In this document: positions 2,784-64,000 of the stretch, one piece after another
How positions within the stretch are numbered: position 1 is the first letter of the stretch
Layout: every line of letters begins with the position of its first letter
From: Flavobacteriales bacterium
GTDB taxonomy: Bacteria; Bacteroidota; Bacteroidia; UBA4408
Length of the DNA: 64,000 bases
Assembly: GCA_040374085.1 (NCBI GenBank)
Contig: JBEIVB010000003.1
Coordinates: forward strand, 2,868-66,867
Direction: 5' to 3'
Notes under the pieces: generated by a model
Databases searched by the model: none
What the model was told of the DNA's origin: nothing
The model's input: only the letters and a program-made list of their open reading frames with translations
Made by a program: the position numbers and the translations under genes

Positions 2784-4832
2784 ATGAACAAGACCTTTCA
2801 ACGCCATACCGTTACCGCAGCCCTGCCCTATGCCAACGGACCCAAGCACCTCGGGCATTTGGCCGGAGCCTACCTTCCGGCCGATGTGTACGTGCGCTAC
2901 CTCAGGGCCATTGGGCAAGATGTGGTTTTTGTATCGGGCAGCGACGAGCACGGCACCGCCATTGCCAACCAGGCCTTGCGCGAAGGAACCACGCCTCAGG
3001 CCATCATAGACAAATACCACGCCCTAAACCGCGATGCCTTTCAGCAACTGGGCATATCGTTTGACATATACCACCGCACCAGCGAACCCCTGCACCACCA
3101 AACCGCCCAGGAATTCTTTCTGCGCCTGTACGAAACGGGCAACCTCGTGGCCGAAGAAACGGAGCAGTACTTCGATGAAGAGGCCGGAAAATTTTTGGCC
3201 GACCGCTACATCATGGGCACCTGCCCCAAGTGCAGCAACGAAAAAGCCTATGGCGACCAATGCGAACGCTGCGGAACCGAGCTCAGTCCAACCGAGCTGT
3301 TGAACCCCCACTCTTTGCTTTCGGGCAAGGCACCCGTGTTGCGCAAAACCACCAACTGGTTTTTGCCTATGGACAAGCTGGAGTCGGGCATAGTGGCCTA
3401 CCTCGAGGGGCATCCGGAATGGAAAAGCCATGTGCTGGGCCAATGCAGAAGCTGGATATCGGATGGATTAAAGCCCCGGGCCATGACCCGCGACCTCGAC
3501 TGGGGCGTGCAGGTGCCCTTGCCTGAGGGAGCCGGAAAAGTTTTATATGTTTGGTTTGATGCCCCCATTGGCTACATATCCGCCACCAAGCAATGGGCAG
3601 CAGACCATGGTAAAGATTGGAAACTCTACTGGCAAGATCCAGGCACCCGACTCGTGCACTTTATTGGAAAAGACAACATCGTATTTCACTGCATCACCTT
3701 CCCCATGATGCTTATGGCCCACGGGGGCTATGTATTGCCGGACCAGGTGCCCGCCAACGAGTTTATGAACCTCGAAGGCGATAAAATGAGCACCAGCAGG
3801 CAATGGAGCATAGAGATGGACGAATACCTGAGGGCCTTCCCGGGCAAAGAAGACGTCTTGCGGTATTACCTTCTTTCTATATTACCGGAAAGCAAAGACA
3901 GCGAGTTTACCTGGAAAGACTACCAGGCGCGCAACAACAATGAGCTGGTAGCCATCTTGGGCAACTTTGTAAACCGCTCGTTGGTGCTCACCCAGAAATA
4001 CTTCAACGGGGTGGTGCCGGCGGCCCACGAATACACCCGCGAAGACCTTCTGCTGATGGAAGAAGCGGCGCGTTTTCCGGAGCGCATAGGTGCGGCCTTG
4101 GAGGCCTTTCGGTTCCGCGAGGCCTTGCAGGAATTGATGAACCTTGCGCGCTTGGGCAACAAATACCTGGCCGATACCGAGCCCTGGAAACTCATGCAGA
4201 GCGACGAAAAGCGGGTGCGCACCGTGTTGAACTTGGCCTTGCAGTTGAGTGCATCCCTCAGCACCCTGATGGAACCCTTCTTGCCGTTTACCGCCGAGCG
4301 CCTGCGCAGCATGCTGCGCATTGGGAAACTATCGTGGACACAAGCCGGCAACCTCCATCACCTGGGCGAAGGACATGTGTTGGACGCACCGTTTTTGCTC
4401 TTCGACAAAGTAGACGACGAAACCGTAGCCCGCCAGGTAGAGGCCCTTCACGCAAAAAAAGCGGCCTTGCCGGCAGAGGCTCATGTTGCCCAACCCCAAA
4501 AGCCCGAAACCACCTTTGAAGCCTTCAACGCCATGGATTTGCGGGTGGCTACCATTGTTGCTGCCGAGCGCGTGCCCAAGACCGATAAGCTCCTGAAACT
4601 CACCGTAGATACCGGCCTCGATAAAAGAACCGTTGTATCGGGCATTGCTGAGTGGTTCAACCCCGACACCCTTCCGGGAACCCGCGTGTTGATTTTGATT
4701 AACTTAGCACCTCGAAAAATAAAGGGCATTGAATCGAACGGCATGATTTTGCTGGCCGAAAATGCCCGGGGCCAACTGGCCATGGTGCCGCAACTCACCG
4801 AGGATATGGAAAACGGCGCTGTGGTCAAATAA
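2784..4832 (+). CDS. metG: Methionine--tRNA ligase with C-terminal tRNA-binding domain
   Basis: LPYANG, HLGH, SGSDEHGT, CPKC/CERC zinc knuckle, YVWFDA, KMSTS, C-terminal OB fold. Confidence 0.99.
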   Translation: MNKTFQRHTVTAALPYANGPKHLGHLAGAYLPADVYVRYLRAIGQDVVFVSGSDEHGTAIANQALREGTTPQAIIDKYHALNRDAFQQLGISFDIYHRTSEPLHHQTAQEFFLRLYETGNLVAEETEQYFDEEAGKFLADRYIMGTCPKCSNEKAYGDQCERCGTELSPTELLNPHSLLSGKAPVLRKTTNWFLPMDKLESGIVAYLEGHPEWKSHVLGQCRSWISDGLKPRAMTRDLDWGVQVPLPEGAGKVLYVWFDAPIGYISATKQWAADHGKDWKLYWQDPGTRLVHFIGKDNIVFHCITFPMMLMAHGGYVLPDQVPANEFMNLEGDKMSTSRQWSIEMDEYLRAFPGKEDVLRYYLLSILPESKDSEFTWKDYQARNNNELVAILGNFVNRSLVLTQKYFNGVVPAAHEYTREDLLLMEEAARFPERIGAALEAFRFREALQELMNLARLGNKYLADTEPWKLMQSDEKRVRTVLNLALQLSASLSTLMEPFLPFTAERLRSMLRIGKLSWTQAGNLHHLGEGHVLDAPFLLFDKVDDETVARQVEALHAKKAALPAEAHVAQPQKPETTFEAFNAMDLRVATIVAAERVPKTDKLLKLTVDTGLDKRTVVSGIAEWFNPDTLPGTRVLILINLAPRKIKGIESNGMILLAENARGQLAMVPQLTEDMENGAVVK

Positions 4833-4855
4833 TCACCCAACGCTCTTTTCATACT

Positions 4856-4927
4856 GGCGCCGTAGTTCAATGGATAGAATAGAAGTTTCCTAAACTTTTG
4901 ATGTGGGTTCGATTCCCGCCGGAGCCA
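4856..4927 (+). tRNA. tRNA-Arg (anticodon CCT), CCA not encoded
   Basis: Cloverleaf: anticodon loop TTCCTAA in GAAGT/ACTTT stem, GTGGG-TTCGATT-CCCGC T arm, acceptor GGCGCCG/CGGAGCC with one G.A mismatch. Confidence 0.92.
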
Positions 4928-4943
4928 CTATTTTTACAACACA

Positions 4944-6173
4944 ATGGCTGTATTTTTTACTTCCCTTTTTAAAAAAAAGTGGCCAGCAGCCATTTCCTGC
5001 GCAGGGTGGTGGATGACCTTTTTCATGGGGGCTACAGCCCAGCCCGTGCAATGGGGAAGCAGTGGATATATAGAATACCAGCAAGGCACCCTCCCATTGG
5101 TGATATCGGTGCCGCATGGTGGCGAACAAGAGCCTGCGTCCATTCCAAATCGTACGTGCAACAATGCCGTTCTGGTAACCGATGCCAATACCGTAGAGGT
5201 GGCGCTGGCCATAAAATCTTCCTTATATGCTCTTACCGGCTGCTACCCGCACATCATCGTTTGCCACCTGCATAGAAGCAAGCTCGACTGCAACCGAAAC
5301 CTATCCGATGGGGCTTGTGGCAATACCACAGCTGGTCAGGCCTGGAGCGAATTTCATAACTTTATAAATGTTGCCCAAAATACCGCGCAGGCGGCTTATC
5401 CAAGTAAAGTGTTTTTTATGGATCTGCACGGCCACGGCAACCCCATTCAACGCATAGAGTTGGGGTATTTGCTCTACGACGACGAGCTCGCCTTGACCGA
5501 CTCCACACTCAACACGCCGACCTACATAGGCTACAGCTCCATTCGGCATCTGGCAAACAACAACGTTGGCAACCTCAACCACGCTCAACTGCTTAGGGGC
5601 AGCACAGCCTTGGGTACGCTTTTGGGAAATGGTGGTTATCCGTCGGTACCCAGCCAACAAATTCCGATGCCTGGCCTCAGCACCAACTATTACAGCGGCG
5701 GCTACATTCTTGCAAACCACAGCAGCTACGTATCCGGCATCTTAACCGACGGCGTGCAAATGGAGCTCAACTTCACCGGCATACGCGATACTCCAACCAA
5801 CATATCGCGGTTTGCCGACAGCGCTGCAGTGGCAATCGTAAATTACCTCAATCTGAACCTAGGGTTTGAGGTTGGTGGTTGCGCACCCAGTGCAGTCGAA
5901 GCCCCAGGGCTCCAATCGAACTTGTCTTTAGCACCCAACCCCCTCAAACCGGGTGAGAAACCCAGGTTTCTTGGTTTAACCTCCACTATAATCTTTGAGC
6001 TGTATAATGGTTTAGGGGCTTGTGTCTGGAGAGGTGAAGCTCACCATCAGGACGGCGCCACAAATTGGCCGTTTCTAAAACCGGGATTGTATTGGATGAG
6101 GGTAAGCAGCAATTTCAATCCGGCACTTTCATGTTCGGGTAAAGTTTCGTTCCCTCTACTCATTCAGGAGTGA
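4944..6173 (+). CDS. N-formylglutamate amidohydrolase-like Zn hydrolase with signal peptide and T9SS C-terminal sorting domain
   Basis: ISVPHGG, RSKLDCNR, MDLHGHG, VQMEL motifs; CTD-like LSLAPNP...ELYNGLG...LKPGLYWMRV. Confidence 0.8.
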   Translation: MAVFFTSLFKKKWPAAISCAGWWMTFFMGATAQPVQWGSSGYIEYQQGTLPLVISVPHGGEQEPASIPNRTCNNAVLVTDANTVEVALAIKSSLYALTGCYPHIIVCHLHRSKLDCNRNLSDGACGNTTAGQAWSEFHNFINVAQNTAQAAYPSKVFFMDLHGHGNPIQRIELGYLLYDDELALTDSTLNTPTYIGYSSIRHLANNNVGNLNHAQLLRGSTALGTLLGNGGYPSVPSQQIPMPGLSTNYYSGGYILANHSSYVSGILTDGVQMELNFTGIRDTPTNISRFADSAAVAIVNYLNLNLGFEVGGCAPSAVEAPGLQSNLSLAPNPLKPGEKPRFLGLTSTIIFELYNGLGACVWRGEAHHQDGATNWPFLKPGLYWMRVSSNFNPALSCSGKVSFPLLIQE

Positions 6174-41292: not shown

Positions 41293-42184
41293 GCACATAC
41301 ATCTGTTAACTCCTGAGCATTGGCAAACCTATGCCCTGCTCGACGTGGGCCATTTTCACAAGCTGGAACGGTTTGGAGATTTCATTACCATAAGACCGGA
41401 ACCCCAAGCGGTTTGGGATCCCGTTCAATCAATGGCTGAATGGGAGCGCCAAGCCCATTTGCGCTTCGTGCCAAAATCGAGCTCTTCCGGGGAATGGAAA
41501 AAACTAAAATCCTGCTCAGACCGGTGGATGCTGTCGTACGGCGACGGCAACACCACGCCTCGTATGCAACTGCGTTTGGCCCTCACCTCTTTTAAGCACG
41601 TGGGCGTTTTTCCCGAGCAGGCGGCCAATTGGGATCGCATCTACCGAAACCTAAAAAAAATAAAAGGACCGTCGAGATTTTTAAACCTATTTGCTTATAC
41701 CGGAGCGGCATCGCTTGCAGCCCGTGCAGCGGGTGCAGAGGTTACCCACGTAGACTCGGTAAAACAAGTGGTTACCTGGGCTCGGGAAAACATGGAGCAC
41801 AGCGGCCTCACCGACATACGATGGGTGGTGGAAGACGCCCTTAAATTTGTGAAGCGTGAAGTAAAAAGGGGAAATCGATACCACGGCATCATACTGGATC
41901 CACCGGCCTATGGCCACGGCGCCAACGGTGAAAAATGGAAACTGGAGGATCAGATTCAGGAAATGATGCGCGAGGTGGTGCAGCTCCTGAATCCCGAGCA
42001 GCATTTTATTATACTAAACGCATACAGCTTAGGATTCAGCAGCCTTATTTTGCCCAATCTGTTTCAGCACGCCCAACATTTATATCCGAGCCAAACGTTG
42101 GAAGTGGGCGAGCTCTATTTGCCCGCCCGCTCCGGTCTAACCCTGCCATTGGGAGTATGGGGCATGGGCACCCTCAACTTTTAG
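41285..42184 (+). CDS. Class I SAM-dependent methyltransferase (RlmI/RlmK-like)
   Basis: FKHVGVFPEQ, FLNLFAYTG, ILDPPAYG. Confidence 0.88.
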   Translation: MSEHIHLLTPEHWQTYALLDVGHFHKLERFGDFITIRPEPQAVWDPVQSMAEWERQAHLRFVPKSSSSGEWKKLKSCSDRWMLSYGDGNTTPRMQLRLALTSFKHVGVFPEQAANWDRIYRNLKKIKGPSRFLNLFAYTGAASLAARAAGAEVTHVDSVKQVVTWARENMEHSGLTDIRWVVEDALKFVKREVKRGNRYHGIILDPPAYGHGANGEKWKLEDQIQEMMREVVQLLNPEQHFIILNAYSLGFSSLILPNLFQHAQHLYPSQTLEVGELYLPARSGLTLPLGVWGMGTLNF

Positions 42185-44625
42185 CGAAAGGTGAGGGTAA
42201 TGCCCGCCAGAATGTGGGTGCCGGCCTGAGGATACACGAAATTCTCGCTCACCCGCTGTCCACCCGACCAATAGCCGTAGGTGTAACCATTGGGTGCATA
42301 ACGACGGTTTAATAAATTGTACACCGTTGCATGTACGGCAACCTCCGGAATCCATCGCGTACTGCGGGAATAGCCAATGCGCACATCGGTGGTATAAAAA
42401 TCGCGGAGGCTACGTTGTGTACTGCCCGTATTGTCTAGATATTGCCTTCCAACATACTTATGAAAACTGGTGAGGCGAAGACCTTTTGCAGGTTCCCAAA
42501 CCAAGCTGCCGGCGCCAACCAAGTCGGGAGAAAAAGCTATGGGCGTTTGGCTGTGTACAATGGCTTTCTGCCCACCGGCATCGTAATCGTCGAGGTATTC
42601 GGTAAACGAAATCACCCGATTACGGCTGAGGGTAACGTTGCCCTCGAGCGTAATCGTGGAATGCACCCGCCAAGCCCCCTCCCATTCTATGCCAGCCCGG
42701 TAGCTGCGTGCCACGTTGGTGCGCTGATATGCGCCCACATCGTTGATTTTCCCGGTTAACACCAACTGGTTGTAATAATCCATGTAGTAGGCGGTAACGC
42801 CCATTTTCCAGGAGCCGCGGTTGACTTTCCAACACAGCTCATAATCGCGCAACACCTCGGGGCTGGGGCGGGATGCGGGAGTGGAGTTGATGAGGTCGTC
42901 GCGGGTGGGTTCGCGCATGGCCTGCCCAAAAGATGCAGTAAGCGTGCCGTGGGTACCCAGGTTGCGGGTGAGGCTGGCTTTGGGATTGAAGAAGCGGTAG
43001 TTCACCCATTGCTGACCCTGAACCCGGTCGTCGCCAAAGCCAAAAAACGAATAGCCTATGGCCCTAACCTGTGCATCCACCAGCAGCAGCCAATCCTGCG
43101 CCAGATCCACGGTGGTTTTCCAAAAGAGGTTGCCATCTGTTTTCTGCGCGCGGTTGTTGTAATAATCGCGGGTGGGCCAGCCGCCAAGGGCCAGCTCCGA
43201 CCAGATAACCCGTCCAAAATGCCGCCCATCGTAGCGGTTTAAGCCCCCGCCCCAGGTATGCTGCCACCTTCCGGATGGGCGAAGGTTTATGGAAAAAGTG
43301 GCGCCATAGAAGTGATTATCGAGCCATTTTCGGCGTATGAGGTTAGACGTGCGCAGGGTATCGGCGCCCTGCACCACATCCTGAAGGCCATACAGAGCAA
43401 GGGTTTCAGACGGGCGGTACTCCTCAAAATATCCACCCCCTTTGGTGTAATGCAGGGCTGCATGCACATCGAGCCTCCGGCTGAAGCGATGCGAAAAATG
43501 CGCCTGATAATAATCCTGACGGTATCGGTCTATTTGATTTTCATAATAAAACCCGTTGTATCGGGTGGGTCTGCTGTTGATGAGCAGACCTTTATCCATG
43601 GCGTTTAAATACCATCCGTTTCGGTCAAGGTAAGCGCGAACCCCGGCGGTGTCGTTGTTGTACTTGGCCTCCGGTACGCCGTTCCATGCCTGGTATGTAA
43701 CCTCTTGCCCGGTAAAAGCTACCAGGCGTAGGCTGCTGGAAGCGCCAAACCAGGAAGCGCAGCCGTAGGCGGCTTGCAGATTGGCCGTGGCCCTATCGAT
43801 GTAGCCGTTGCTTTGAATGCGAGAGAGGCGCCCTTCCAAGGTAAAACGGTTGCCCAGCAGGCCGGTACCAAAAGCAAGGGTGTTGCGCAAGGTGCCGAAG
43901 CTGCCTCCCGAAGCCACCACCTGAGCGTAAGGTGAAGGATTGTATTGCAGGGTTTGAAGGTTGAGGCTTCCCCCAAAAGATGCACTGCCGTTGGTAGAGG
44001 TACCCACTCCGCGCTGTATCTCTATGCTTTGAGCCGAGCTGGCCAGATCGGGTATGTTCACAAAGAAGGTGGTGTGCGACTCGGCATCGTTCACCGGTAT
44101 GCCATTTATGGTGGTGTTGAGGCGGGTGGGGTCGGTGCCCCTTATGCGGAGCCAAGTGTAGCCAATGCCCGCCCCTGCATCGGAATAGGTAACCACCGAT
44201 GGGGTCTGGCTCAGCAGCATGGGCAAATCCTGACCTAGGTTCAAGGGTACCAGTTCGAGGCGGGTGAGGGTGGTGGATCCCGATGCCACGCGCGGGTTGG
44301 CACGCGTGGCCGTAATGGTAACCTCATCAACCAAGCGGGGGGTGGGCTTGAGCTCCAGAGAAAAACCCAAAGTGCCGCATGCTATTGAGGCCCGCTCAGG
44401 AGAATAACGCATCAAAGAAGCCTCTACCAAAATGCTGTCCTGCAGACAGTTGAGCACAAATCGGCCGCCGGCATCGGAAACCGCGCTCTGGAGTCCGCTT
44501 GTTCCGCGCACCAGCACACCGGGCAAGGGCTGTCCGGTGGCCGCGTCGCGGCAATAGCCTTCAACAGATCCGGCGCGAACCGGGGCGAAAGAACACAAAA
44601 AAAAGAGGGTGAAAAATGTGCGCAT
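42181..44625 (-). CDS. TonB-dependent receptor, probable thiamine uptake
   Basis: GQDLPMLL, SDAGAGIGY, TINGIPVND, IQRGVGTS; located under a TPP riboswitch. Confidence 0.92.
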   Translation of the reverse strand: MRTFFTLFFLCSFAPVRAGSVEGYCRDAATGQPLPGVLVRGTSGLQSAVSDAGGRFVLNCLQDSILVEASLMRYSPERASIACGTLGFSLELKPTPRLVDEVTITATRANPRVASGSTTLTRLELVPLNLGQDLPMLLSQTPSVVTYSDAGAGIGYTWLRIRGTDPTRLNTTINGIPVNDAESHTTFFVNIPDLASSAQSIEIQRGVGTSTNGSASFGGSLNLQTLQYNPSPYAQVVASGGSFGTLRNTLAFGTGLLGNRFTLEGRLSRIQSNGYIDRATANLQAAYGCASWFGASSSLRLVAFTGQEVTYQAWNGVPEAKYNNDTAGVRAYLDRNGWYLNAMDKGLLINSRPTRYNGFYYENQIDRYRQDYYQAHFSHRFSRRLDVHAALHYTKGGGYFEEYRPSETLALYGLQDVVQGADTLRTSNLIRRKWLDNHFYGATFSINLRPSGRWQHTWGGGLNRYDGRHFGRVIWSELALGGWPTRDYYNNRAQKTDGNLFWKTTVDLAQDWLLLVDAQVRAIGYSFFGFGDDRVQGQQWVNYRFFNPKASLTRNLGTHGTLTASFGQAMREPTRDDLINSTPASRPSPEVLRDYELCWKVNRGSWKMGVTAYYMDYYNQLVLTGKINDVGAYQRTNVARSYRAGIEWEGAWRVHSTITLEGNVTLSRNRVISFTEYLDDYDAGGQKAIVHSQTPIAFSPDLVGAGSLVWEPAKGLRLTSFHKYVGRQYLDNTGSTQRSLRDFYTTDVRIGYSRSTRWIPEVAVHATVYNLLNRRYAPNGYTYGYWSGGQRVSENFVYPQAGTHILAGITLTFR

Positions 44626-44689
44626 ATCGGCGTGGTTTGGGTTTGGGTGCGCTACAGTGGCCCCGGGATAACCCCTGCCGATATTCTTG

Positions 44690-44770
44690 CATCCTCCCTA
44701 CGCCGGCACAATCCGGATCAGGTTCAATGGGTATGATCTCAGCCGCAGCTTGCACGGCACCCCTGTATTG
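44690..44770 (-). ncRNA. TPP riboswitch aptamer
   Basis: Minus strand GGGGUGC...GCUGAGAUCAUACCCAUUGAACCUGAUCCGGAUUGUGCCGGCGUAGGGA matches the TPP consensus; TATGTTTG box at 44776-44783. Confidence 0.95.
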
Positions 44771-44862
44771 CGGGGCAAACATAGGCACCCAAACGCAATC
44801 TTGCAAGGCAACCCGCGCGGCCGGAAAATCTGTATTTTTATGGCCTGTTTCAAGCCTCCTTC

Positions 44863-45117
44863 ATGAACCGAATCCACCTTTTGCTGCTGATTGTTGCAAC
44901 CGCCCTTTGCTTGGGCTGGGCCTGTAAGAAAGACTCCGACCGTCTGGGCTGCGTGCGCGGCAAATGAAATGGCGTGGCAGGCTCGGTGCCCATCGGCTGC
45001 ATGTCGCGCGAAGAGTTTTATCAATACCTCGATTCCCCGAATTATTATTACAATGGATCGCTGATAAATCTAGAAATAACCTGGAAAACAACTTCATCCT
45101 GCAACGACTGCGAATAA
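44863..45117 (+). pseudogene. Small Cys-rich lipoprotein with a single in-frame TGA at codon 35 (pseudogene or recoded)
   Basis: MNRIHLLLLIVATALCLGWA-CKKDSDRLGCVRGK*NGVAGSVPIGCMSREEF...[12 protein letters not shown]; TGA at 44965-44967. Confidence 0.65.
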
Positions 45118-45121
45118 ACCT

Positions 45122-46312
45122 ATGTACGGATCCATTCAAGCCCATCTGCAACGCGAACTCGAATCGATACAGGAGCAGGGGCTCTTCAAGCGCGAGCGCA
45201 TCATCACAGGTCCGCAAGGCGCAGAAATCACCGTTGATTCGGGCCAAACCGTACTCAACTTTTGCGCCAACAACTACCTCGGACTTTCCTCTCACCCAAA
45301 AGTGTTGGAAGCTGCACATGACGCTTTGCGCAGCCATGGCTTTGGCATGAGTTCGGTGCGTTTCATCTGCGGCACCCAGGACATACACAAAACCCTAGAA
45401 CAAAAAATATCGGAGTTTCTGGGAACAGAAGACACCATCTTATATGCCGCTGCGTTTGATGCCAATGGCGGTGTGTTTGAGCCTTTGTTGGGCGAGGAAG
45501 ATGCCATCATCAGCGATGAGCTCAACCACGCCTCCATCATTGACGGCGTGCGCCTGTGCAAAGCCAAGCGCTACCGGTATAAGAACAACAACATGAGCGA
45601 GTTGGAAGAGCGTCTAAAAGAAGCGCAAAGCCAACGGTTCCGTCTCATCGTAACCGACGGGGTGTTCAGCATGGACGGCTACCTGGCGAAGCTCGACGAA
45701 GTGGTTGCCCTTGCCGAGCGCTACAACGCCATGGTTATGATAGACGAATGCCATGCCACCGGCTTCATTGGAAAAACCGGAAGAGGAACCCATGAGCATC
45801 ACGGTGTGATGGGCAAGATCGACATCATCACCGGCACGCTGGGTAAAGCCTTGGGCGGCGCTATGGGAGGCTTCACCAGCGGCCGCAAGGAAATCATCGA
45901 CCTGCTGCGCCAGCGTTCGCGGCCCTACCTGTTCTCCAACTCCTTAGCCCCTGCCATTGTGGGCGCATCCATTGCCGTAATGGACATGCTGAGTGAAGCC
46001 ACCACCTTGCGCGACAAAGTGATGGACAACGCCGCCTACTTCCGTAAAGCCATGACCGATGCCGGTTTCGACATCAAGCCCGGCATACACCCCATAACAC
46101 CCGTAATGTTATACGACGCCCGCTTGGCCCAGACCTTTGCCGAGCAGCTTCTAGCCGAGGGCATCTATGTCATCGGCTTCTTCTATCCTGTGGTGCCCAA
46201 AGATCAGGCCCGCATTCGGGTGCAGGTGTCGGCCGCACATGAGCGCCACCACCTCGACCGTGCCATACACGCGTTTACCCAGGTAGGCAAGCGCTTAGGT
46301 GTGATTGCCTGA
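45122..46312 (+). CDS. kbl: Glycine C-acetyltransferase (2-amino-3-ketobutyrate CoA ligase)
   Basis: [49 protein letters not shown]. Confidence 0.98.
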
Positions 46313-46319
46313 CCCCCAC

Positions 46320-49001
46320 ATGAACGATCGACCTCGACCCCACTTCTACCCCTTGCTCCGGCACGTGCTGCTGGTGTTCGTTGGGTGCACCTGGGTGTTG
46401 GGATGCCGCACCGGAAAACCCACAGCCCCGCTGCCTGTGGCGGCCATCTTGGTGCCCGACAGCCTGCTGAGCGATACCCTTTCCCTTACCTCGGGCCCAT
46501 TACGACCCAGCAGCAAGCGCGTAAACGACCTCCTGCATACCCGCCTCGACATTTCCTTCGACTGCACCAACCGCCGCGTGCTGGGTAAGGCTACCTTGCA
46601 GCTGAAGCCCTACTTCCTGCCCGTGTCCAGCGTGCAGCTCGATGCCGTTGGGTTCGACTGGAACGAAGTGGCCATGATCAGCGGAAACATCAAAACCAAA
46701 TTAAAATATTTGTACGATGGCAAGGTCATTACCATAGACCTTGGCCGCATGTTTCGACGCAACGAAACCTACACCCTCTACCTCGACTACCTGGCGCGAC
46801 CGGAAGAGAGTGCTCTCCCTGCCGAAGGTCCGTCCCGTGACAAGGGCCTTACCTTCATCAATCCCATGGGAAACCAGTCCGGCATGCCCCAACAGATTTG
46901 GACACAGGGAGAGCCCCAGCACAACTCCTCGTGGTTTCCCACCATCGATGCGCCCAATGAACGCATGACCCAGGAACTGGCCATTACCGTTGACAACCGC
47001 TTTGTTACCCTCAGCAACGGCTTGCTTGTATGGCAACAGCGCAACCCAGACAGCACGCGTACCGACATCTGGAAACAGAGCCTGCCCTCGCCGCCCTACC
47101 TAACCATGTTGGCAGTGGGCAACTTTTCCATAACCAAAGATGAATATAAAGGGAAAGAAGTAACCTACTACACCGATCCTACCTACGCTCCATACGCTCG
47201 AGACATATTCGGAAAAACGCCCGAAATGATGGAGTTCTTTTCCAAGAAACTGGGGGTTGAATATCCTTGGGAAAAATACGCCCAGGTGGTGGTACGAGGC
47301 TATCCCTCGGGCAGCATGGAGAACACCTCGGCCACCCTGCATGGCCAATTCATGCAGCAAACCGCGCGGGAGCTGCTGGATGAATCCAACGAAGACTTCA
47401 TCGCCCATGAGCTTGTCCACCAGTGGTTTGGCGACCTGGTAACCTGCGAAAGCTGGTCGAACCTTGCCCTCAACGAAGCATTTGCCTCCTACGGCGAATA
47501 CCTATGGCTCGAGCATCGATACGGGCGTGCAGAGGCCGATTGTCACCTTCAACGCCAGCTCCAGGGCTACCTGGTAGAGGCTCAGGAAAAGCAGGTAGAA
47601 ATCATCCGAAACCGCTTCTCCGACCCCGATGAGCTCTTTGATGCCCACAGCTATCAGAAAGGATCGAGGGTGCTGCACATGCTTCGGTATTATGTTGGGG
47701 ATGAGGCCTTTTTCGCTGCCCTTAGCACCTACCTCGAACGCCATAAATTCAGCACAGTAGAGCTTTCCGACCTGCGTAAGGCGTTTGAAGAAGTGAGCGG
47801 CGAAGACCTCAACTGGTTTTTCGAGCAGTGGTTTCTTACACCCGGCCACCCGAACCTGAAAGTGCGGTGCGAATACAACGACTCCCTTCATAAACAAAAC
47901 GTGGTGGTGGATCAGCTTCAGGACATCACCCAATCTACCCTCTTTCAAGTGCCCATAACCGTTGACTTGTATTTCAAAGGCAAGAAAGAGCGCAAAGAAA
48001 TTCTCATCACCAAAGCGCATGAAGTCTTTACCTTCGACTGCGCTGCGCGGCCCGATTGGGTAAACGTAGATGCCGAAAAAATCCTGCTGGGAACCTTAGA
48101 GGAGGTTAAACCTACACAGGAGTGGGTTACCCAATACCAACGCGGGCCATTGTTTCTCGATCGGTTGGAGGCCCTGAAAGCCTTGCGCAACCGCATGGAA
48201 AACTCGGTAGTACTGGAGATCTTTCACAAAGCCCTTTCAGACCCAAATTGGGGCATTCGCCTTTACGCCGTGGAACAGGCTCGTGAACTGTTGCGCGTAA
48301 ACGCTTCGAAGAGCAAGCCCTTTCTGTTGCGCTTGGCGCAGCGTGATGCTAAGGCCGATGTGCGGGCAGAAGCCATTGCTCAGTTAGCCCGTCACGATGG
48401 CTCAGACGATCTCGTGAATCTTTTCAAGCGCAGCCTCGAAGACTCTTCTTACCACGTAGCATCCGAAGCCCTTTTGGGCCTGTATGGATTGGATAAAAGC
48501 CTTGGTTTGGAGTTTGCACGATCCTTTGAAGCAGACAGCACCGAAAACATTGTTTCTGCCGTATCGGAGATATACTCCGGTGCAGGCGGAGAAGCGGAAC
48601 ATGCCTACTTTCTAAATCGGTTTTCACATGCCATGGGTTATGATAAGCTTCAACTTGTGAAGCTCTACTCTGCCTACTTGATGCAGCGTTCAGACACGAC
48701 CATCAACCGTGGCATACGAGTATTGGAAGAAGTCGCCCTAAACGATGAAAACTGGTACGTGAGGCTATCGGGCACCAATGCCATCAACCTTTTGCACAAC
48801 ATGTACCAGAGTCGGCATCAAGTGGCCCGAGAGCGTTTGAACCAGCTCCAAAAAACCAATCCCGGCTCGCCCCAAGTGCGCGACCTAAAGCAATCCGAAG
48901 AGCGGTCTGAGATACAGGTCACCAAGTTGGATGCGTTGATACGCAACATCAAAACAAAAGAAACCGACGCCAAGCTGCTTCAGATTTATCGGAACAACTA
49001 A
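46320..49001 (+). CDS. M1 family aminopeptidase, probable lipoprotein, with C-terminal HEAT-like repeats
   Basis: GSMEN, HELVHQWFG-(x)-LNEAFA zinc motif, YQKG; LG-C lipobox-like site. Confidence 0.93.
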   Translation: MNDRPRPHFYPLLRHVLLVFVGCTWVLGCRTGKPTAPLPVAAILVPDSLLSDTLSLTSGPLRPSSKRVNDLLHTRLDISFDCTNRRVLGKATLQLKPYFLPVSSVQLDAVGFDWNEVAMISGNIKTKLKYLYDGKVITIDLGRMFRRNETYTLYLDYLARPEESALPAEGPSRDKGLTFINPMGNQSGMPQQIWTQGEPQHNSSWFPTIDAPNERMTQELAITVDNRFVTLSNGLLVWQQRNPDSTRTDIWKQSLPSPPYLTMLAVGNFSITKDEYKGKEVTYYTDPTYAPYARDIFGKTPEMMEFFSKKLGVEYPWEKYAQVVVRGYPSGSMENTSATLHGQFMQQTARELLDESNEDFIAHELVHQWFGDLVTCESWSNLALNEAFASYGEYLWLEHRYGRAEADCHLQRQLQGYLVEAQEKQVEIIRNRFSDPDELFDAHSYQKGSRVLHMLRYYVGDEAFFAALSTYLERHKFSTVELSDLRKAFEEVSGEDLNWFFEQWFLTPGHPNLKVRCEYNDSLHKQNVVVDQLQDITQSTLFQVPITVDLYFKGKKERKEILITKAHEVFTFDCAARPDWVNVDAEKILLGTLEEVKPTQEWVTQYQRGPLFLDRLEALKALRNRMENSVVLEIFHKALSDPNWGIRLYAVEQARELLRVNASKSKPFLLRLAQRDAKADVRAEAIAQLARHDGSDDLVNLFKRSLEDSSYHVASEALLGLYGLDKSLGLEFARSFEADSTENIVSAVSEIYSGAGGEAEHAYFLNRFSHAMGYDKLQLVKLYSAYLMQRSDTTINRGIRVLEEVALNDENWYVRLSGTNAINLLHNMYQSRHQVARERLNQLQKTNPGSPQVRDLKQSEERSEIQVTKLDALIRNIKTKETDAKLLQIYRNN

Positions 49002-49559
49002 ATGAAATCGCGCTGCGCCTGGTGCTCGTCCGACCCCCTCTACCAAGCCTATCACGACCGGGAATGGGGCCGCCCCGTGCACAACGATGGCACCCTCTTT
49101 GAAGCCCTGCTTCTCGACACCTTTCAAGCCGGATTGAGCTGGCTCACCATCCTGCGCAAGCGCGAAAACTTTCGGTCTGCCTTTGCCGGATTCGACCCTG
49201 TGCAAGTGGCTGCCTTTGGCGATGCACACTTGGAATCCCTTATGGAAAACCCCGGCATCGTGCGCAACCGCCAAAAAATAAAAGCCGCCATAAGCAACGC
49301 CCGTGCCTTTCTGGTGGTGCAGCAAGAATACGGCACCTTTGATGCCTACATCTGGCAGTTTACCGGAGGCATGTCGGTGGTGCTGCATCCGCGCGACCTC
49401 AGCGAAGTGCGGGCCTCCTCGCCCGAGTCGGATGCCATGAGCAAAGACCTGCGCAAACGGGGCTTCTCCTTTGTGGGCACCACCATCTGCTACGCCTTTA
49501 TGCAGGCCACCGGCATGATGGTGGAACACACCCGCACGTGCTTTCTATACAGAGGCTAA
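49002..49559 (+). CDS. tag: DNA-3-methyladenine glycosylase I
   Basis: RCAW, YHDREWG, FQAGLSW, IVRNRQKI, FVGTTICYAFMQA, H...C. Confidence 0.98.
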   Translation: MKSRCAWCSSDPLYQAYHDREWGRPVHNDGTLFEALLLDTFQAGLSWLTILRKRENFRSAFAGFDPVQVAAFGDAHLESLMENPGIVRNRQKIKAAISNARAFLVVQQEYGTFDAYIWQFTGGMSVVLHPRDLSEVRASSPESDAMSKDLRKRGFSFVGTTICYAFMQATGMMVEHTRTCFLYRG

Positions 49560-56581: not shown

Positions 56582-59500
56582 TTGAAACACGGAACGCGGT
56601 TATACCTCATCGGAACCCTGGTTTTCTTGCTGGCAGTGCTGGCCTGGACCACCTTTGCCGATGCGGGAACCGAGGCTTTTTCCGAGATGTGGCAGTGGGG
56701 CCATGGAGAAGCGCTTGACATAGAAGACCCCAACGCCCTCCTAACCTTGCCCTTGGATGCCGATACCGGAAAGGCCGGCAAGCCTAAAGATGCGGGCGGT
56801 GGAGGCGGAAAACTGCCGTTCAACTTCAAAGACGAAAGCTGGGATCCCACCGACCCCGGCCACCAAGGCGGACTCTACCTGAGCAACCCCGGAAACGTAA
56901 AAGACTCGGTCTATTACGACCCAAAAGAAAACAACTTCTTCTTCAACCAGAACATCGGCACCATGCGGTTCCGCAACCCCTCGTACATGACCTTCGAGGA
57001 GTACATGGACTACGACATGGAGAAATCGCTGCGCAACTATTGGAAGCAGCGCCATGAAGCAGAAGACATACAGAAAAAAGCCAACAGCCTAATTCCAAAA
57101 ATCTACGTGAGCGGCGATGCCTTCGACCGCATCTTTGGGGGCAACACCGTTGACATACGTCCATCCGGTGCGGCCGAGCTCACCTTTGGCGTAAACACCT
57201 CCCGCACCGAAAACCCCGCCATTGCCGAGGCTCAGCGGAAAATCAGCGTCTTCGACTTCAACCAAAAAATACAGCTCAACGTGGTGGGAAAAATTGGGGA
57301 CAAACTGAAAACCCAGATCAACTACGACACCGAAGCGGCCTTTAACTTCCAGAACCAGGTAAAGCTGGAGTACACCGGATATGAAGACGATATTATAAAA
57401 AAGATTGAGGCGGGCAACGTAAGTCTTCCGCTTACCGGCACCCTCATTACCGGCAGCCAGGCCCTGTTTGGCATCAAGACCCAACTGCAGTTTGGTCGCG
57501 CCAACATCACCACCGTATTGAGCCAGCAGAACGGGCGCAAGCAAACCGCCAACTTCGAGGGTGGAACCCAGACCGTTAAATTTGAGGTTACAGCAGACAA
57601 CTACGACGTAAACAAGCACTACTACCTATCGCAATACTTCCGCGACAACTACAACCGGGCCTTGTCTCAGCTACCGGTCATACAGTCGAACATCACCGTA
57701 ACCAAGGTAGAGGTTTACATCACCAACATGACCTCTGCAGTGGACAACACCCGCAACGTGGTGGCCTTTGCCGACCTTGGGGAGTCGGATCGTACGCGGG
57801 GCAATCCGGGTGCTCGTCCCAACGAGAAATGGGCGGCGGCCGGCTTTGTGGGTGCTCCCCTGGCCACCGATGCCAGCGGCGACTTCCCTTCGAGCCGCGG
57901 TTCCAACAACCTCTATAACACCATCACCGGCGCGGCTTTTTCCGGGCTGCGTTCCATCAACACTGCCAGTGGCGTATTGGCGCCCTACCGCAACGCACCG
58001 TTCAACTTCAACCTCGTTGCCGACTACGAGATCTTAGAGCGCGCCCGCAAACTGCAGCCCACAGAATTTACCTTTCATCCTCAGTTGGGTTACATCAGCT
58101 TAAACTCGCCCCTCAACAACAACGAAGTATTGGCCGTAGCCTACCAATACACCGCCAATGGCCGCACCTACCAGGTGGGTGAATTTTCTACCGATGGCAT
58201 TACCGATCCGCAATGTCTCTACCTAAAAATGCTGAAAGCCACAAATCCCAGGGTGAGGCTGCCCATGTGGGACTTGATGATGAAAAACGTGTACAGCATT
58301 GGCGGATACAATATAACACCACAGGATTTTAAACTGGATATATTATACAACGACCTTCGGAAAGGCATCAACCTCAACTACCTCACCGAGAGCAAGCTCG
58401 CCAACATAGTGCTGTTGCAGGCGTGCAACATGGACAGCTTCAACAACCAGCAGGAGCGCATACCCGATGGTATGTTCGACTTCTTACCCAACATTACCGT
58501 TAACCCTCAAAACGGGCGCATCTACTTTACCACCATAGAACCCTTTGGCAGCGACCTGCGCAAGAAAATGATCTCGGGCCAAGATGGAACTCCTTCGGCC
58601 GAGGACCTTGTCTACATCAAGAAATACGTTTTTCAGGAGCTCTACGACTCTACCAAAACAGCGGCTCAGCAGATACCCAACAAAAATCGGTTTCGCTTAC
58701 GGGGCTCGTATTCCGGTTCATCGGGCAACGAGCTTTCCCTAAACGCCACCAACGTGCCTCAGGGCTCGGTGCGGGTTACCTCTAACGGTACTGCCCTCAC
58801 CGAAAACGTAGATTACACCGTAGACTACGCAGCGGGCAAAGTAAAAATCATCAATCCGGGCTTGGCCAGCTCGCGGAGCTCCATACAAGTATCCTATGAA
58901 AACCAGCAGGCCTTTACCCCCATCGTGCGCAACCTCATTGGCACGAACATCGAGTATAAAGTAAACAAAGACCTAGTCCTTGGAGGAACCTTCTTACGGC
59001 TTACCGAGCGGCCGCTGACCCAGAAAGTAACCCTTGGCGACGAGCCCATTGCCAACATGATCTATGGGTTTAACGTGAACTACAAAACCGAGGCGCCCTG
59101 GTTAACGCGTTTGATTGATAAATTACCCCTCATCAACACCAAGGAGATGAGTACCATCACCTTCAGCGGTGAATTTGCGCATCTGCTGCCGGGCCACAGC
59201 AGTGCGGTGGGCAAAGAAGGCATATCGTACATCGACGACTTTGAGGCTACCCAAAGCGTAATAGACCTGCGGCAGCAATTCAACTGGCAGCTGGCCAGTT
59301 TACCGCAGGGCCAGCCTGAACTCTTTCCGGAAACGCGCTTCTCCCAAGATGTGCGGTGGGGTATGAACCGAAGCAAACTTGCTTGGTACACCATTGACCC
59401 CCTCTTCTTTCAAAACCTGAGCACCACCCCTCAGCACATCCGCGACAACAAGACCTTGCAATCCAACCACCTATCGCGCCAGATTCTGGAGGTGGAGGTT

Positions 59501-62500
59501 TTCCCGAACCGCCAGAGGCAGTTGGCCAGCTTACCCAACATTCCCATGCTGGATCTTGCTTTCTACCCCAAAGAGCGCGGGCCTTACAACTACGATGCAA
59601 TACCCACCGGCATATCGGCGGGCATAAACTCCAACGGATGGTTGAATGCGCCCAGCACACGTTGGGGAGGCATGATGCGCCGCATTGAAAACAACGACTT
59701 CGAAACCGCCAACATCCAGTTCATTCAGTTCTGGTTGATGGATCCCTTCAACGAAGATTACCCCATACTTGGCAACGCAGGCGACTTATATTTTCACGTG
59801 GGAGATGTTTCGGAAGATGTGATGAAAGACGGCCGTAAAATGTTTGAGAATGGCTTGCCCACCCAAAGCCAGCCTTTCGACTCTACCCGCCTGCAGCGCA
59901 CCCCATGGGGCATTGTGCCCGTTACACCCGCGGTAGTAAACGCCTTTGATGCAGACCCCGCCTCTAGGCCCTTTCAAGACATTGGACTCGATGGATTGAA
60001 CGATGCCGAAGAGCGGGGCCAATTCCAGAACTACCTCACCGCCATACAAGGATTGGTGAATCCGCAAGTCTACCAGCGCATGCAGAACGACCCTTCGGCA
60101 GACAACTTCAATTACTTTCGATCGGCACAAGCAGACGCAGCGCAGCGCAGCATTCTGCAACGGTACAAAGAATTCAACGGCACCGAGGGCAACAGCTCCG
60201 TAGACCAGCCGGATGGATACCCCATCTCGAGCACCACCTTGCCCAACAACGAAGACATCAACCGCGACAACAACCTCAACTACAACGAGAGCTACTTTCA
60301 ATACAAAGTGCGCATTGCCAAAGAGGCCTTTACCGTAGGACAGAATTACATCACCGACGTGTACGAATCGTCAGTTACCACGCCCGACAACCGCACCCGC
60401 ACCGTAAAATGGTACCAGTTTAAAATACCCTTGGTTACCCCCGACAAAACCGTTGGCGAGATACAAGATTTTCGGTCCATCCGTTTCATGCGGGTGTTTT
60501 TAAAAGGGTTTTCTGATTCCATCTTCCTGCGTTTTGCCCGATTGGAGTTGGTGCGGGGCGATTGGCGGAAATACCTGTTCGATCTCAATGCTCCGGGCGA
60601 ATACATTGCCGATGATAAATTCAACACCTCTACCTTCGACATTGCCGCTGTAAACGTAGAGGAGAATGCCAGTAGGGTTCCCGTAAAATACGTCTTGCCG
60701 CCCGGCATTGAGCGGATTATAGACCCCACCTCTACCAACCTGCGCCAGCTCAACGAACAGTCGCTGGTGCTGAGGGTATGCAACCTGGCCGATGGAAAAA
60801 GCAAAGCCGCGTATCGGAACGTGGATCTGGACATGCGCATGTACAAGAACCTGGAGATGTTTGTGCACGCAGAAGCGGCGGGGCAAGACAACCTAAGGAC
60901 CGGGGAAATGAGGTTCTTTTTGAGATTGGGTACCGACTTCGATCAAAATTATTACGAATATGAAATACCCCTCACCTTTACCCAATGGGGGGCAGCAGAC
61001 CGCACCCAGATTTGGCCCGACGCCAACAACATCAACATCCTTTTGGAAAAACTTCTGGATGCCAAGCTGGAGCGAAACAACAAAAGTTGGGACATTACCC
61101 AGCCCTACCGCTACTCCGATCCAAGCGTTCCGGGTGTAAACATCATCGTAGTGGGCAACCCCAACCTCAGCTCGGTAAAGACCATCATGGCAGGCGTGCG
61201 CAATCCCAAGCGCATTGGTTTCCAAGACGCAAGCGACGATGGATTGGCCAAGTGCGGCGAGGTATGGATCAACGAACTGCGCCTCACCAACTTCCGCCAA
61301 AACAGCGGCTGGGCAGCCAACGCACGTCTCCAAGCCAAGCTGGCAGACATTGCCGACGTGACCGTTACCGGAACGCGAAAAACAGAGGGCTTTGGGCAAT
61401 TGGAAAACAAACTAAATGAGCGTTTGCAGAACAACCAGTTTTTGTATGAGGTGAACGGAACCATTAAACTGCAAAAATTCTTTCCGGAAAAATTGAACCT
61501 CAACATTCCCATGTTTGTGGGATTCTCTGAAGGTTTTATAACTCCAATGTATGACCCATTGAATCCGGACGTTCCCTATAGCCAGTCTCTGGCCAGTATA
61601 GACGATTCCAAGCGCCGCGACGATTTCCTGCGCGCCACCCAGGACTATACGAAAAAGCGAAGCATCAACTTTACCAACGTAAAGAAAGACAAAGGCAAAA
61701 ACTCAAAGAAAGCCCACTTTTACGACATCGAAAACTGGGCGCTCAACTATTCCTACAACGAAGTCTTCAGGCGAAACATCAACTTGGAGTATGCCACCGA
61801 CATGAACCACAAAGGGGGCATTGCCTACAACTTCGCCAGTCAGGCAAAGCCGTTGAGGCCTTTTGAAGGCATAGGTTTTTTAAAAGGAGGTGCCTTTAAA
61901 ATCCTGACGGAAACCACCATAAGCCTGCTGCCGAATCGTTTTTCGTTCCGCACCGATTTGGATAGGACCTTCAGCGAAACACGGGCCCGCAATGTGGAGG
62001 ATGCCAACTTGTTGATCAATCCCTTCATCAACAAGCTGTTCAACACGACGCGCATGTACGATATGAAATGGGATTTGTTTAAATCATTGAACATAGATTA
62101 TACGGCGAATGTAGCAGCCCGCATTGATGAGCCGGCAGGAAGGATAGACACCACTCAGATCGATCCCATCAACAGGCCCGGCTACACCCGGCGCGACTCC
62201 GTAATTGCGAACCTAAAACGGTTTGGGCGTACCACCCTCTTCCACCAAACCACCAACGTGACCTGGAACGTTCCCATCAACAAAATTCCGTTGTTTAACT
62301 GGATTTCGGCCAATGCAAAATACACCGCAAACTTCGATTGGATTTCTGCGCCGCCCAACATTTTGGCACAGCAGGCCGCGGGCAACAACACCCCCATAGC
62401 CAACACCATTACCAACTCGAACCAGAAAACGGCATCGGCCAGTTTAAACCTGGTAAATTTATATAACAAAATACCTTTTTTAAAGGAATTGAATAACCCC

Positions 62501-64000
62501 AAACCAAAAGCGCCCAAGCCCCTGAAAACAAAAGAGCAACTAAAGAAAGAGAAAGAAGATCGAGCCAAAATGTCGCCGGCAGAAAAAGCAAAACTTCAAG
62601 CAAAAGAAGACAGCATTCGCAAAGCCGAGCAGGGACCTAATCCGATATTGGCAAACGTTGCCAAGGTTTTGATGATGGTGAAAAACGCCAATGCCAGCCT
62701 AAGCGAAAGCCGCGGGACTACTTTGCCAGGGTATCTGCCTAAAACCACCTTGTTTGGCCTTTCCGACCTCAACTTTAATGCCGCAACCGCGCCTGGCTTG
62801 CCCTTTATTTTTGGCGATCAAAGCAACCAGGTATTCGAAAAAGCAAATCGCTACAAATGGCTTACCCAAAGCGATTCGGCCAACACCTTATTTACGCGGA
62901 CCTTCAACAGCACCTTTACCGGCAAAATCACCATTGAACCTATAAAAGATTTTAAAATCGAATTGAATTGGTCGCGCAACGCTACCCGCAACAACAATGG
63001 CATTATGCGCTACGACCCCACCAGCGGAACCTACAACCCCATTAGTGCCGTTGAAACCGGAAGCTACAGCATAAGCGTCATCAGTTGGTCGTCTGCTTTT
63101 GACCAGGACAGTCCGGACAGTTTGATTTCGAGCACCTTTAGATCTTTCCTCAACAACCGCCAAACCATCTCTCAGCGCATTGGGCAGGAGCGGGGTTTGA
63201 GCGGTGACTCCCTGGATGCGGGCAGTGGGCTTTACAGGGGCTATGGGAAAACCCAGCAAGACGTATTGGTGCCTGCCTTCTTTGCGGCTTACACCGGAAC
63301 CAACGCGGGCAGCGTTCCGTTGAACTTCTTCAAACAGATGCCCGCACCCAACTGGCGCATATCCTACGACGGATTGGCGAAATTGGAATCGGTGAAGCAG
63401 TATTTCAAAAGCCTAACCGTATCGCACAGCTACCGCTCTACCTTTAACATTGCCAGCTACACCACCAACCAATTCTTTCAGGACGATGGCCGCGGCAACT
63501 CCGTAACCCGCGACTTAAAAAACAATTTCCTACCCAAGAATGAAATTCAGGTGGTGACCCTTTCCGAGCAAATGGCCCCTTTAATTGGGTTCGACGGTAC
63601 CCTTCAGAACAGCTTCTTAGCCAAATTGGAGATTAAGCGCGACCGCAACATTTCCTTGAGCATGGCCAACAGCCAGATAACCGAAATTCGGAGCAACGAA
63701 ATCGTGACCGGTTTGGGGTATAAATTCAAAGATGTAATACCTCCTTTTGCCAAACGCTTTGGTTGGAGCTTGAAGAGCGATTTGAACCTGCGCCTCGACG
63801 TATCGTTCCGCCGCAACCAAACCGTTATTCGGCAGGTGGAGACCGCCCTTAACCAGCGCACCGCCGGAACCAACGTAGTGAGCATCCGTTTCAACGCCGA
63901 CTACACCATCAACCAGCGATTGAACCTGAGAATCTTCTACGACCGCACCATCAACACCCCCCTCATCACCACCACCTTCCCCACCTCCAACACCAACTCG
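56582..64000 (+). CDS. sprA: T9SS outer membrane translocon SprA/Sov, 3' end truncated by window edge
   Basis: One frame from TTG 56582 to the edge (2473 codons; start and end in the same frame, no stop-bounded long + ORF in the track); GKIGDKL, YDTEAAFNFQN, KIEAGNVSLP, WDLMMKNVYS, YIDDFE, KWYQFKIP, WINELRL motifs. Confidence 0.96.
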   Translation, partial: MKHGTRLYLIGTLVFLLAVLAWTTFADAGTEAFSEMWQWGHGEALDIEDPNALLTLPLDADTGKAGKPKDAGGGGGKLPFNFKDESWDPTDPGHQGGLYLSNPGNVKDSVYYDPKENNFFFNQNIGTMRFRNPSYMTFEEYMDYDMEKSLRNYWKQRHEAEDIQKKANSLIPKIYVSGDAFDRIFGGNTVDIRPSGAAELTFGVNTSRTENPAIAEAQRKISVFDFNQKIQLNVVGKIGDKLKTQINYDTEAAFNFQNQVKLEYTGYEDDIIKKIEAGNVSLPLTGTLITGSQALFGIKTQLQFGRANITTVLSQQNGRKQTANFEGGTQTVKFEVTADNYDVNKHYYLSQYFRDNYNRALSQLPVIQSNITVTKVEVYITNMTSAVDNTRNVVAFADLGESDRTRGNPGARPNEKWAAAGFVGAPLATDASGDFPSSRGSNNLYNTITGAAFSGLRSINTASGVLAPYRNAPFNFNLVADYEILERARKLQPTEFTFHPQLGYISLNSPLNNNEVLAVAYQYTANGRTYQVGEFSTDGITDPQCLYLKMLKATNPRVRLPMWDLMMKNVYSIGGYNITPQDFKLDILYNDLRKGINLNYLTESKLANIVLLQACNMDSFNNQQERIPDGMFDFLPNITVNPQNGRIYFTTIEPFGSDLRKKMISGQDGTPSAEDLVYIKKYVFQELYDSTKTAAQQIPNKNRFRLRGSYSGSSGNELSLNATNVPQGSVRVTSNGTALTENVDYTVDYAAGKVKIINPGLASSRSSIQVSYENQQAFTPIVRNLIGTNIEYKVNKDLVLGGTFLRLTERPLTQKVTLGDEPIANMIYGFNVNYKTEAPWLTRLIDKLPLINTKEMSTITFSGEFAHLLPGHSSAVGKEGISYIDDFEATQSVIDLRQQFNWQLASLPQGQPELFPETRFSQDVRWGMNRSKLAWYTIDPLFFQNLSTTPQHIRDNKTLQSNHLSRQILEVEVFPNRQRQLASLPNIPMLDLAFYPKERGPYNYDAIPTGISAGINSNGWLNAPSTRWGGMMRRIENNDFETANIQFIQFWLMDPFNEDYPILGNAGDLYFHVGDVSEDVMKDGRKMFENGLPTQSQPFDSTRLQRTPWGIVPVTPAVVNAFDADPASRPFQDIGLDGLNDAEERGQFQNYLTAIQGLVNPQVYQRMQNDPSADNFNYFRSAQADAAQRSILQRYKEFNGTEGNSSVDQPDGYPISSTTLPNNEDINRDNNLNYNESYFQYKVRIAKEAFTVGQNYITDVYESSVTTPDNRTRTVKWYQFKIPLVTPDKTVGEIQDFRSIRFMRVFLKGFSDSIFLRFARLELVRGDWRKYLFDLNAPGEYIADDKFNTSTFDIAAVNVEENASRVPVKYVLPPGIERIIDPTSTNLRQLNEQSLVLRVCNLADGKSKAAYRNVDLDMRMYKNLEMFVHAEAAGQDNLRTGEMRFFLRLGTDFDQNYYEYEIPLTFTQWGAADRTQIWPDANNINILLEKLLDAKLERNNKSWDITQPYRYSDPSVPGVNIIVVGNPNLSSVKTIMAGVRNPKRIGFQDASDDGLAKCGEVWINELRLTNFRQNSGWAANARLQAKLADIADVTVTGTRKTEGFGQLENKLNERLQNNQFLYEVNGTIKLQKFFPEKLNLNIPMFVGFSEGFITPMYDPLNPDVPYSQSLASIDDSKRRDDFLRATQDYTKKRSINFTNVKKDKGKNSKKAHFYDIENWALNYSYNEVFRRNINLEYATDMNHKGGIAYNFASQAKPLRPFEGIGFLKGGAFKILTETTISLLPNRFSFRTDLDRTFSETRARNVEDANLLINPFINKLFNTTRMYDMKWDLFKSLNIDYTANVAARIDEPAGRIDTTQIDPINRPGYTRRDSVIANLKRFGRTTLFHQTTNVTWNVPINKIPLFNWISANAKYTANFDWISAPPNILAQQAAGNNTPIANTITNSNQKTASASLNLVNLYNKIPFLKELNNPKPKAPKPLKTKEQLKKEKEDRAKMSPAEKAKLQAKEDSIRKAEQGPNPILANVAKVLMMVKNANASLSESRGTTLPGYLPKTTLFGLSDLNFNAATAPGLPFIFGDQSNQVFEKANRYKWLTQSDSANTLFTRTFNSTFTGKITIEPIKDFKIELNWSRNATRNNNGIMRYDPTSGTYNPISAVETGSYSISVISWSSAFDQDSPDSLISSTFRSFLNNRQTISQRIGQERGLSGDSLDAGSGLYRGYGKTQQDVLVPAFFAAYTGTNAGSVPLNFFKQMPAPNWRISYDGLAKLESVKQYFKSLTVSHSYRSTFNIASYTTNQFFQDDGRGNSVTRDLKNNFLPKNEIQVVTLSEQMAPLIGFDGTLQNSFLAKLEIKRDRNISLSMANSQITEIRSNEIVTGLGYKFKDVIPPFAKRFGWSLKSDLNLRLDVSFRRNQTVIRQVETALNQRTAGTNVVSIRFNADYTINQRLNLRIFYDRTINTPLITTTFPTSNTNS

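Follow-up and report, generated by a model that had tools for sequence, protein, structure and literature searches.

In Bacteroides thetaiotaomicron, the outer-membrane thiamine transporter OMthi (BT2390) is regulated by a TPP riboswitch, and in many gut Bacteroidetes it is encoded in an operon with pnuT and tnr3 (PMC5613172). A partner lipoprotein for OMthi is not described in that study, nor was one found in the literature. Accessory lipoproteins encoded beside a TonB-dependent receptor are known from the SusD/SusC and BtuG/BtuB systems, and these carry a stretch of lysine and acidic residues after the lipidated Cys that resembles the Bacteroidota lipoprotein export signal (LES), defined as K-(D/E)2 or Q-A-(D/E)2 straight after that residue (PMC5080379).

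The locus described here shares elements with both arrangements. Within the window, by which we mean the whole 64-kb stretch of DNA that was analysed, a receptor gene directly follows a TPP riboswitch and, like OMthi, encodes a TonB-dependent protein with Plug and beta-barrel domains, whereas it appears to be monocistronic. Back-to-back with the riboswitch lies a small gene for a Cys-rich putative lipoprotein, which resembles SusD and BtuG in its LES-like lysine/acidic stretch and in its position beside a TonB-dependent receptor, in this case one under a vitamin-sensing riboswitch. Unlike SusD and BtuG, the small protein is tiny (63-residue mature form), is transcribed divergently and outside the receptor operon, and shows no sequence or fold similarity to them, as judged from searches of Pfam, NCBIfam and the PDB as a whole. 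A sequence-only reading of the window had singled out this gene for the in-frame TGA that interrupts it, and had weighed a recent nonsense mutation or assembly error against regulated readthrough and selenocysteine (Sec) insertion. Features of the locus are collected in Table 1.

Table 1 Features at and around the interrupted small gene, in window coordinates.
Feature	Position	Strand	Remarks
TonB-dependent receptor	42181..44625	-	814 aa, Plug and beta-barrel; downstream of the riboswitch
TPP riboswitch aptamer	44678..44774	-	Leader of the divergent TonB-dependent receptor; RF00059
-7 promoter box, near-match	44833..44840	+	TATTTTTA; 30 nt before the small-gene ATG
Small Cys-rich lipoprotein gene	44863..45117	+	84 codons; broken at codon 35 in the window, intact in all relatives
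Signal peptide with lipobox	44863..44925	+	Cys21 (44923-44925) predicted lipidated residue
In-frame TGA	44965..44967	+	T at 44965 private to the window; GGA (Gly35) in sister contigs
Untranslated rest of the gene	44968..45117	+	Most of the predicted folded domain: second and third main strands, helix, Cys46, Cys80, Cys83
Proposed 4-bp stem-loop after the TGA	44976..44990	+	Unsupported element
kbl (glycine C-acetyltransferase)	45122..46312	+	TIGR01822, E 3.9e-213; downstream neighbour only in the close clade

Both halves of the interrupted frame belong to one constrained gene

Translation of the small frame yields 84 codons followed by TAA, with the TGA at codon 35 as the sole internal stop and A as the next base, just as the sequence-only reading had described it. 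The product begins with MNRIHLLLLIVATALCLGWA followed by CKKD, and the four further cysteines that had been noted in the read-through product are located at positions 30, 46, 80 and 83. Searches of 5.8 billion proteins retrieved three clusters of intact homologues, namely P0001, which has 84 aa and is the same as the window product except at the stop position, P0002 (81%) and P0003 (75%). Among intact homologues, dN/dS ranges from 0.13 to 0.19, in codons 1-34 and codons 36-84 alike. Purifying selection of this strength on either side of codon 35 shows that the two halves are one protein, as had been suspected from their appearance, and the 84-codon frame is a genuine constrained gene, far above chance expectation. 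Opposite the small gene and the first part of kbl runs an antisense ORF of 175 aa (44861-45388, minus strand), which is probably no more than a GC-rich shadow frame and was rejected as a gene, since codon-position and substitution patterns favour the plus-strand genes.

The stop codon is private to the window

Six sister contigs, taken from three ENA and three Logan assemblies that are all separate, match the window at 99.6-99.9% identity. In a DNA alignment of the window with these and more distant loci (L001-L009), codon 35 reads GGA (Gly) in all six near-identical contigs, while the more distant orthologous loci, four by summary count, have GGA (L007 and L008) or GGT (L009). Among 10 aligned loci and 23 family proteins, the window alone has the stop. 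In the 23 aligned family members, the residue at codon 35 is one of G, I, V, Y, T, A, S and R; the proposed check of whether relatives carry Trp or Cys opposite the TGA thus found neither residue in any of them, and the stop itself is not conserved.

Variation was analyzed over 42.9 kb of the window against seven sister assemblies. Among 187 variable sites, 149 are synonymous, 32 missense (a class in which 44965 itself is counted, via the antisense shadow frame) and 4 lie outside long frames. Ten alleles occur in the window alone, about 2.3 per 10 kb, and among them only the G>T change at 44965 introduces a stop. The other nine comprise six synonymous, two missense and one intergenic change, and this mostly synonymous set identifies the window as a genuine genotype within the same population that differs slightly from the sister contigs and is not a copy of any of them. 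Indels or further gene-breaking differences in the window were absent over the 42.9 kb. Searches for the TGA allele elsewhere were negative: an exact look-up of the 34-aa truncated product gave no record, and pattern scans accepting either allele (K at the SNP) returned no match in genome_contigs or metagenome_contigs. Block counts hint at a further contig of 50-200 kb that may carry the window's kbl without the intact 84-aa protein, which would fit the TGA being present in the source record.

Single-base indels were seen on the sister side, near the 5' ends of two genes that correspond to window positions of about 46350 and 13350 (L001/L010 and L016, respectively). As a consequence of such a 5' indel, the M1 peptidase gene is called with 850 instead of 898 aa in ERZ17175176, and a histidine kinase gene with 249 instead of 340 aa in ERZ17175177. 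The population or its assemblies hence hold other gene-start variants, which are absent from the window.

A nonsense substitution, or a base error, best explains the interrupted gene

The stop is one substitution away from the GGA of constrained, intact orthologues, the pattern of a nonsense-mutated gene. With a probability of roughly 92%, we consider the G>T change at 44965 to be an ordinary nonsense allele or a consensus base error in which recoding is not involved. The same explanation had been named the most parsimonious one by the sequence-only reading, and it is borne out by the GGA of the six sister contigs, by the intact homologues and by the lack of conservation of both the UGA and the hairpin proposed to follow it. 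A single G>T would have converted codon 35 from GGA (Gly) to TGA; read as an ordinary stop in this host, it would end translation after 34 codons, and cleavage by signal peptidase II before Cys21, predicted from the lipobox, would leave a 14-residue lipopeptide. Such a product would lack nearly the whole beta-beta-alpha-beta domain described below, including Cys46, Cys80 and Cys83, three of its four cysteines. The presumed outcome is a loss-of-function allele, with the fate of the truncated product deduced from the same reasoning. Low-level near-cognate readthrough of the UGA could still yield a little functional full-length protein, as position 35 tolerates many residues.

In young pseudogenes and population nonsense polymorphisms, too, a single-base change ends early a gene that close relatives keep intact and under constraint, with no other decay of the gene, and nothing about the present case is unusual in this respect. 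Phase variation was considered and rejected, as the change is a substitution and the site has no repeat tract.

Two sub-cases of this explanation differ in their biology and were weighed separately. If the T is merely a base-call or assembly artefact, the DNA of the organism reads GGA and its gene is intact. In favour of an artefact, G is the base in each of the six sister assemblies from this population, searches recovered the T allele from no other source, and purifying selection acts on the gene in relatives; moreover, G>T is a class of change that arises from oxidative damage during library preparation. Against an artefact stand the nine other private alleles, mostly synonymous, which make a real private SNP unsurprising in a distinct genotype, and the lack of indels or gene-breaking differences over 42.9 kb, which argues that the assembly is not error-prone. 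Damage artefacts are also rare per read and seldom win the consensus at 14-65x, the coverage given in the sister contig names. An erroneous base is therefore the less probable sub-case, although a sizeable one. Given the private SNPs of the window, its freedom from indels and gene breaks and the rarity of errors at 14-65x coverage, we lean, on rough reasoning, towards a true T, which would make this a young pseudogene or a nonsense polymorphism that arose recently at strain level.

The evidence argues against recoding of the UGA

Under programmed readthrough of UGA-A by Trp-tRNA, as had been envisaged, the gene would have two products, a 14-residue lipopeptide and the lipoprotein in full length. 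In favour of this reading, UGA is relatively leaky in E. coli when the next base is A, the frame stays open beyond the stop, and varied residues are tolerated at position 35. However, the open downstream frame is expected anyway after a very recent nonsense change, TGA-A closes six other long ORFs in the window, and the stop is missing from every other sequence, those of the same population included. Nor is there a significant or conserved structure downstream. The sequence-only reading had drawn a hairpin just 3' of the UGA, and the complementarity of GGCA (44976-44979) and TGCC (44987-44990) on which it was based does exist, but the minimum-energy fold of 44960-45020 relies on other pairings. 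This fold has -18.3 kcal/mol compared with a mean of -19.2 for dinucleotide shuffles (z = +0.37; 118 of 200 shuffles at least as stable), and the orthologues L007 and L009 do not keep the proposed stem. Programmed readthrough is accordingly very improbable, and adding Sec insertion to it hardly raises the odds.

For Sec insertion via a SECIS hairpin just downstream of the UGA, the combination of a UGA in the gene of a secreted protein rich in Cys with GC-rich complementary bases nearby might seem suggestive; bacterial selenoprotein genes such as fdhF likewise contain an in-frame UGA within a conserved open frame and a GC-rich stretch after it. In contrast to those genes, the position here is Gly or variable in homologues and never Cys or Sec, the hairpin is neither above chance nor conserved, and the UGA is private to one assembly. 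A tRNA-Sec was not found in the 64-kb window, whose three tRNAs are Arg, Arg and Leu. Exported lipoproteins are unusual as bacterial selenoproteins, and Sec use is rare in Bacteroidota; the chance of Sec insertion is accordingly minute. Homologues should show Cys opposite a Sec site and the same stop at a programmed readthrough site, and since they show neither, both readings fail.

The least probable alternative of all, decoding of UGA as glycine (genetic code 25), would make the protein identical to P0001 and has in its favour that the sister contigs encode Gly exactly at the window's UGA, but it founders on the use of TGA as terminator in 17 of the 35 long ORFs of the window, on gene ends common to the window and the sister contigs, and on a host that belongs to the Bacteroidota and not to a Gracilibacteria/SR1 lineage. 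TGA is in fact the commonest stop in the window, and the absence of global recoding deduced earlier from its use in other genes holds. The host assignment is based on CarboxypepD_reg-type TonB-dependent receptors and the T9SS protein SprA in the window. The latter corresponds to a very long open frame on the plus strand that runs to the window end (56582-64000) and is represented in a sister contig by a 2483-aa SprA (PF14349).

Collectively, these results refute programmed readthrough and UGA reassignment and essentially refute Sec insertion. As a recoding candidate the locus has no significance, and its annotation should flag a possible pseudogene, neither a selenoprotein nor a readthrough case.

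The small gene belongs to a rare family of putative lipoproteins with a confidently predicted fold

The modest value of the locus is in the gene itself, a member of a rare unannotated family with a confidently modelled, unmatched small fold and a riboswitch-receptor neighbour that persists where the gene on the other side differs. With an exhaustive HMM search of 1.84 billion representatives and a profile search, the family grew to about 25 clusters of undescribed small Bacteroidota lipoproteins of 84-100 aa. Neither Pfam, NCBIfam nor PDB sequences contained a meaningful match to it, and a profile-guided scan of GTDB species genomes yielded only a signal-peptide-level match in an Albibacterium MAG, which is no family member.

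The earlier assignment as a lipoprotein is upheld by the family alignment. An n-region MNR precedes a hydrophobic stretch and the lipobox Cys21, which all 23 members share and which has A, S, G, C or T before it at -1; Trp at -2, as found in the window clade, is atypical. Lipidation of Cys21 and cleavage by signal peptidase II are hence probable from these features. K or R occupies +2 in all 23 members, and acidic residues follow between +3 and +7. In the window, Cys21 is followed by K-K-D-S-D, which resembles the LES, although K-D-S-D is no strict K-(D/E)2.

An AF2 model built with 17 family sequences reached a mean pLDDT of 88.4 (about 95 over residues 31-80), whereas a model using only three sequences was too poor for use (pLDDT 64). 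The predicted fold is beta-beta-alpha-beta, with strands at residues 28-35, 42-48 and 66-76 and a helix at 49-57, so that the first strand of the domain would end at codon 35. A Foldseek search of the PDB gave no meaningful match for this fold (best E 1.5). In the alignment of 23 sequences, Cys30 and Cys83 never vary, whereas Cys46 and Cys80 occur together in 15 sequences, are both missing from 8 and are never found singly. We infer from this all-or-none pattern and from the invariance of the other pair that disulfides form between C46 and C80 and between C30 and C83, the former being apparently dispensable in a sub-clade with Pro at position 46. Neither bond could form in the truncated product.

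Sixteen loci place the small gene back-to-back with a TPP riboswitch

The riboswitch matches RF00059 over model positions 1-105 with 64.1 bits, above the gathering score of 54.3 (E 2.9e-10), and is separated by 88 nt from the start of the small gene on the opposite strand. Pfam identified Plug and TonB_dep_Rec_b-barrel domains on the identical receptor gene of the sister contigs, while NCBIfam gave only generic sub-threshold TonB matches. This back-to-back arrangement recurs in 16 loci, the window and 15 others (L007, L009 and L030 from the window's own clade, L031-L037, L028, L040 and L041/L042), in which an opposite-strand TPP riboswitch is placed 42-108 nt upstream of the ATG of the family member. 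These matches, too, reach the gathering score over the full model, except that the one in L009 covers model positions 1-88, where the contig ends. Wherever the flank is long enough, an orthologous receptor gene follows the riboswitch. The window receptor is 41% and 45% identical to riboswitch-linked receptors over most (L037) or all (L028) of its own length. No riboswitch match was obtained at two family loci, L024/L025 and L026/L027. L026 looks like a rearranged relative, since its GldG-like neighbour shares 69% identity with that of L040.

Upstream of the small gene, the box listed in Table 1 is a near-match to TAnnTTTG, which we take to be the Bacteroidota -7 consensus, as in Bacteroides promoters. 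It lies within a block that is invariant across the window, L007, L008 and L009, and similar boxes are found 16-36 nt upstream in other riboswitch-linked loci. The small gene thus probably has its own promoter and is itself outside riboswitch control. A sigma-70 promoter scan of 44500-45300 found none, as expected for a Bacteroidota. The promoter of the receptor must share the 88-nt spacer or sit within the small gene.

The conserved neighbourhood hints at a role in thiamine uptake. By analogy with BtuG, which serves B12 uptake, the lipoprotein may act for instance as a ligand-capturing or lid partner of the receptor. Tentatively, and as a proposal more likely wrong than right in its full form, the gene could be the founding member of a family of small, two-disulfide, probably surface-exposed lipoproteins that partner the TPP-riboswitch thiamine receptor of Bacteroidota. 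If it did capture thiamine or a precursor, the family would supply a part so far missing from the picture of vitamin B1 uptake in this phylum, and the window strain would offer a natural knockout, or loss-of-function variant, for comparison. The family and its conserved pairing with a TPP-riboswitch receptor are a small new lead, whereas the TGA itself is ordinary.

The downstream neighbour changes between clades

Between the small-gene TAA (45115-45117) and the ATG of kbl (45122) lie 4 nt, in agreement with the spacing given by the sequence-only reading, and synteny with kbl is kept in L001-L009. In other clades, the family member is followed by a glycosyltransferase-like gene (L037), a gene for a DsbH-like thioredoxin protein (L028) or a gene for a GldG-like ABC auxiliary protein (L040, L041), so that riboswitch-linked loci span four different downstream contexts. 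The conserved linkage is therefore the one to the divergent TPP riboswitch and TonB-dependent receptor, and kbl, which adjoins the family member in the close clade only, was for that reason rejected as a conserved functional partner.

Downstream of the small gene, the plus-strand genes of 45122-49559 are packed without gaps. The M1 peptidase gene overlaps kbl by 8 nt, and a 3-methyladenine glycosylase gene starts at the base after the M1 stop, an arrangement that fits one transcript with the small gene in the window clade. In L028, and in this single clade only, the family member is followed by a gene for a 668-aa thioredoxin/DsbH-like protein (4111-6117, plus strand), an interesting neighbour for a lipoprotein predicted to contain disulfides.
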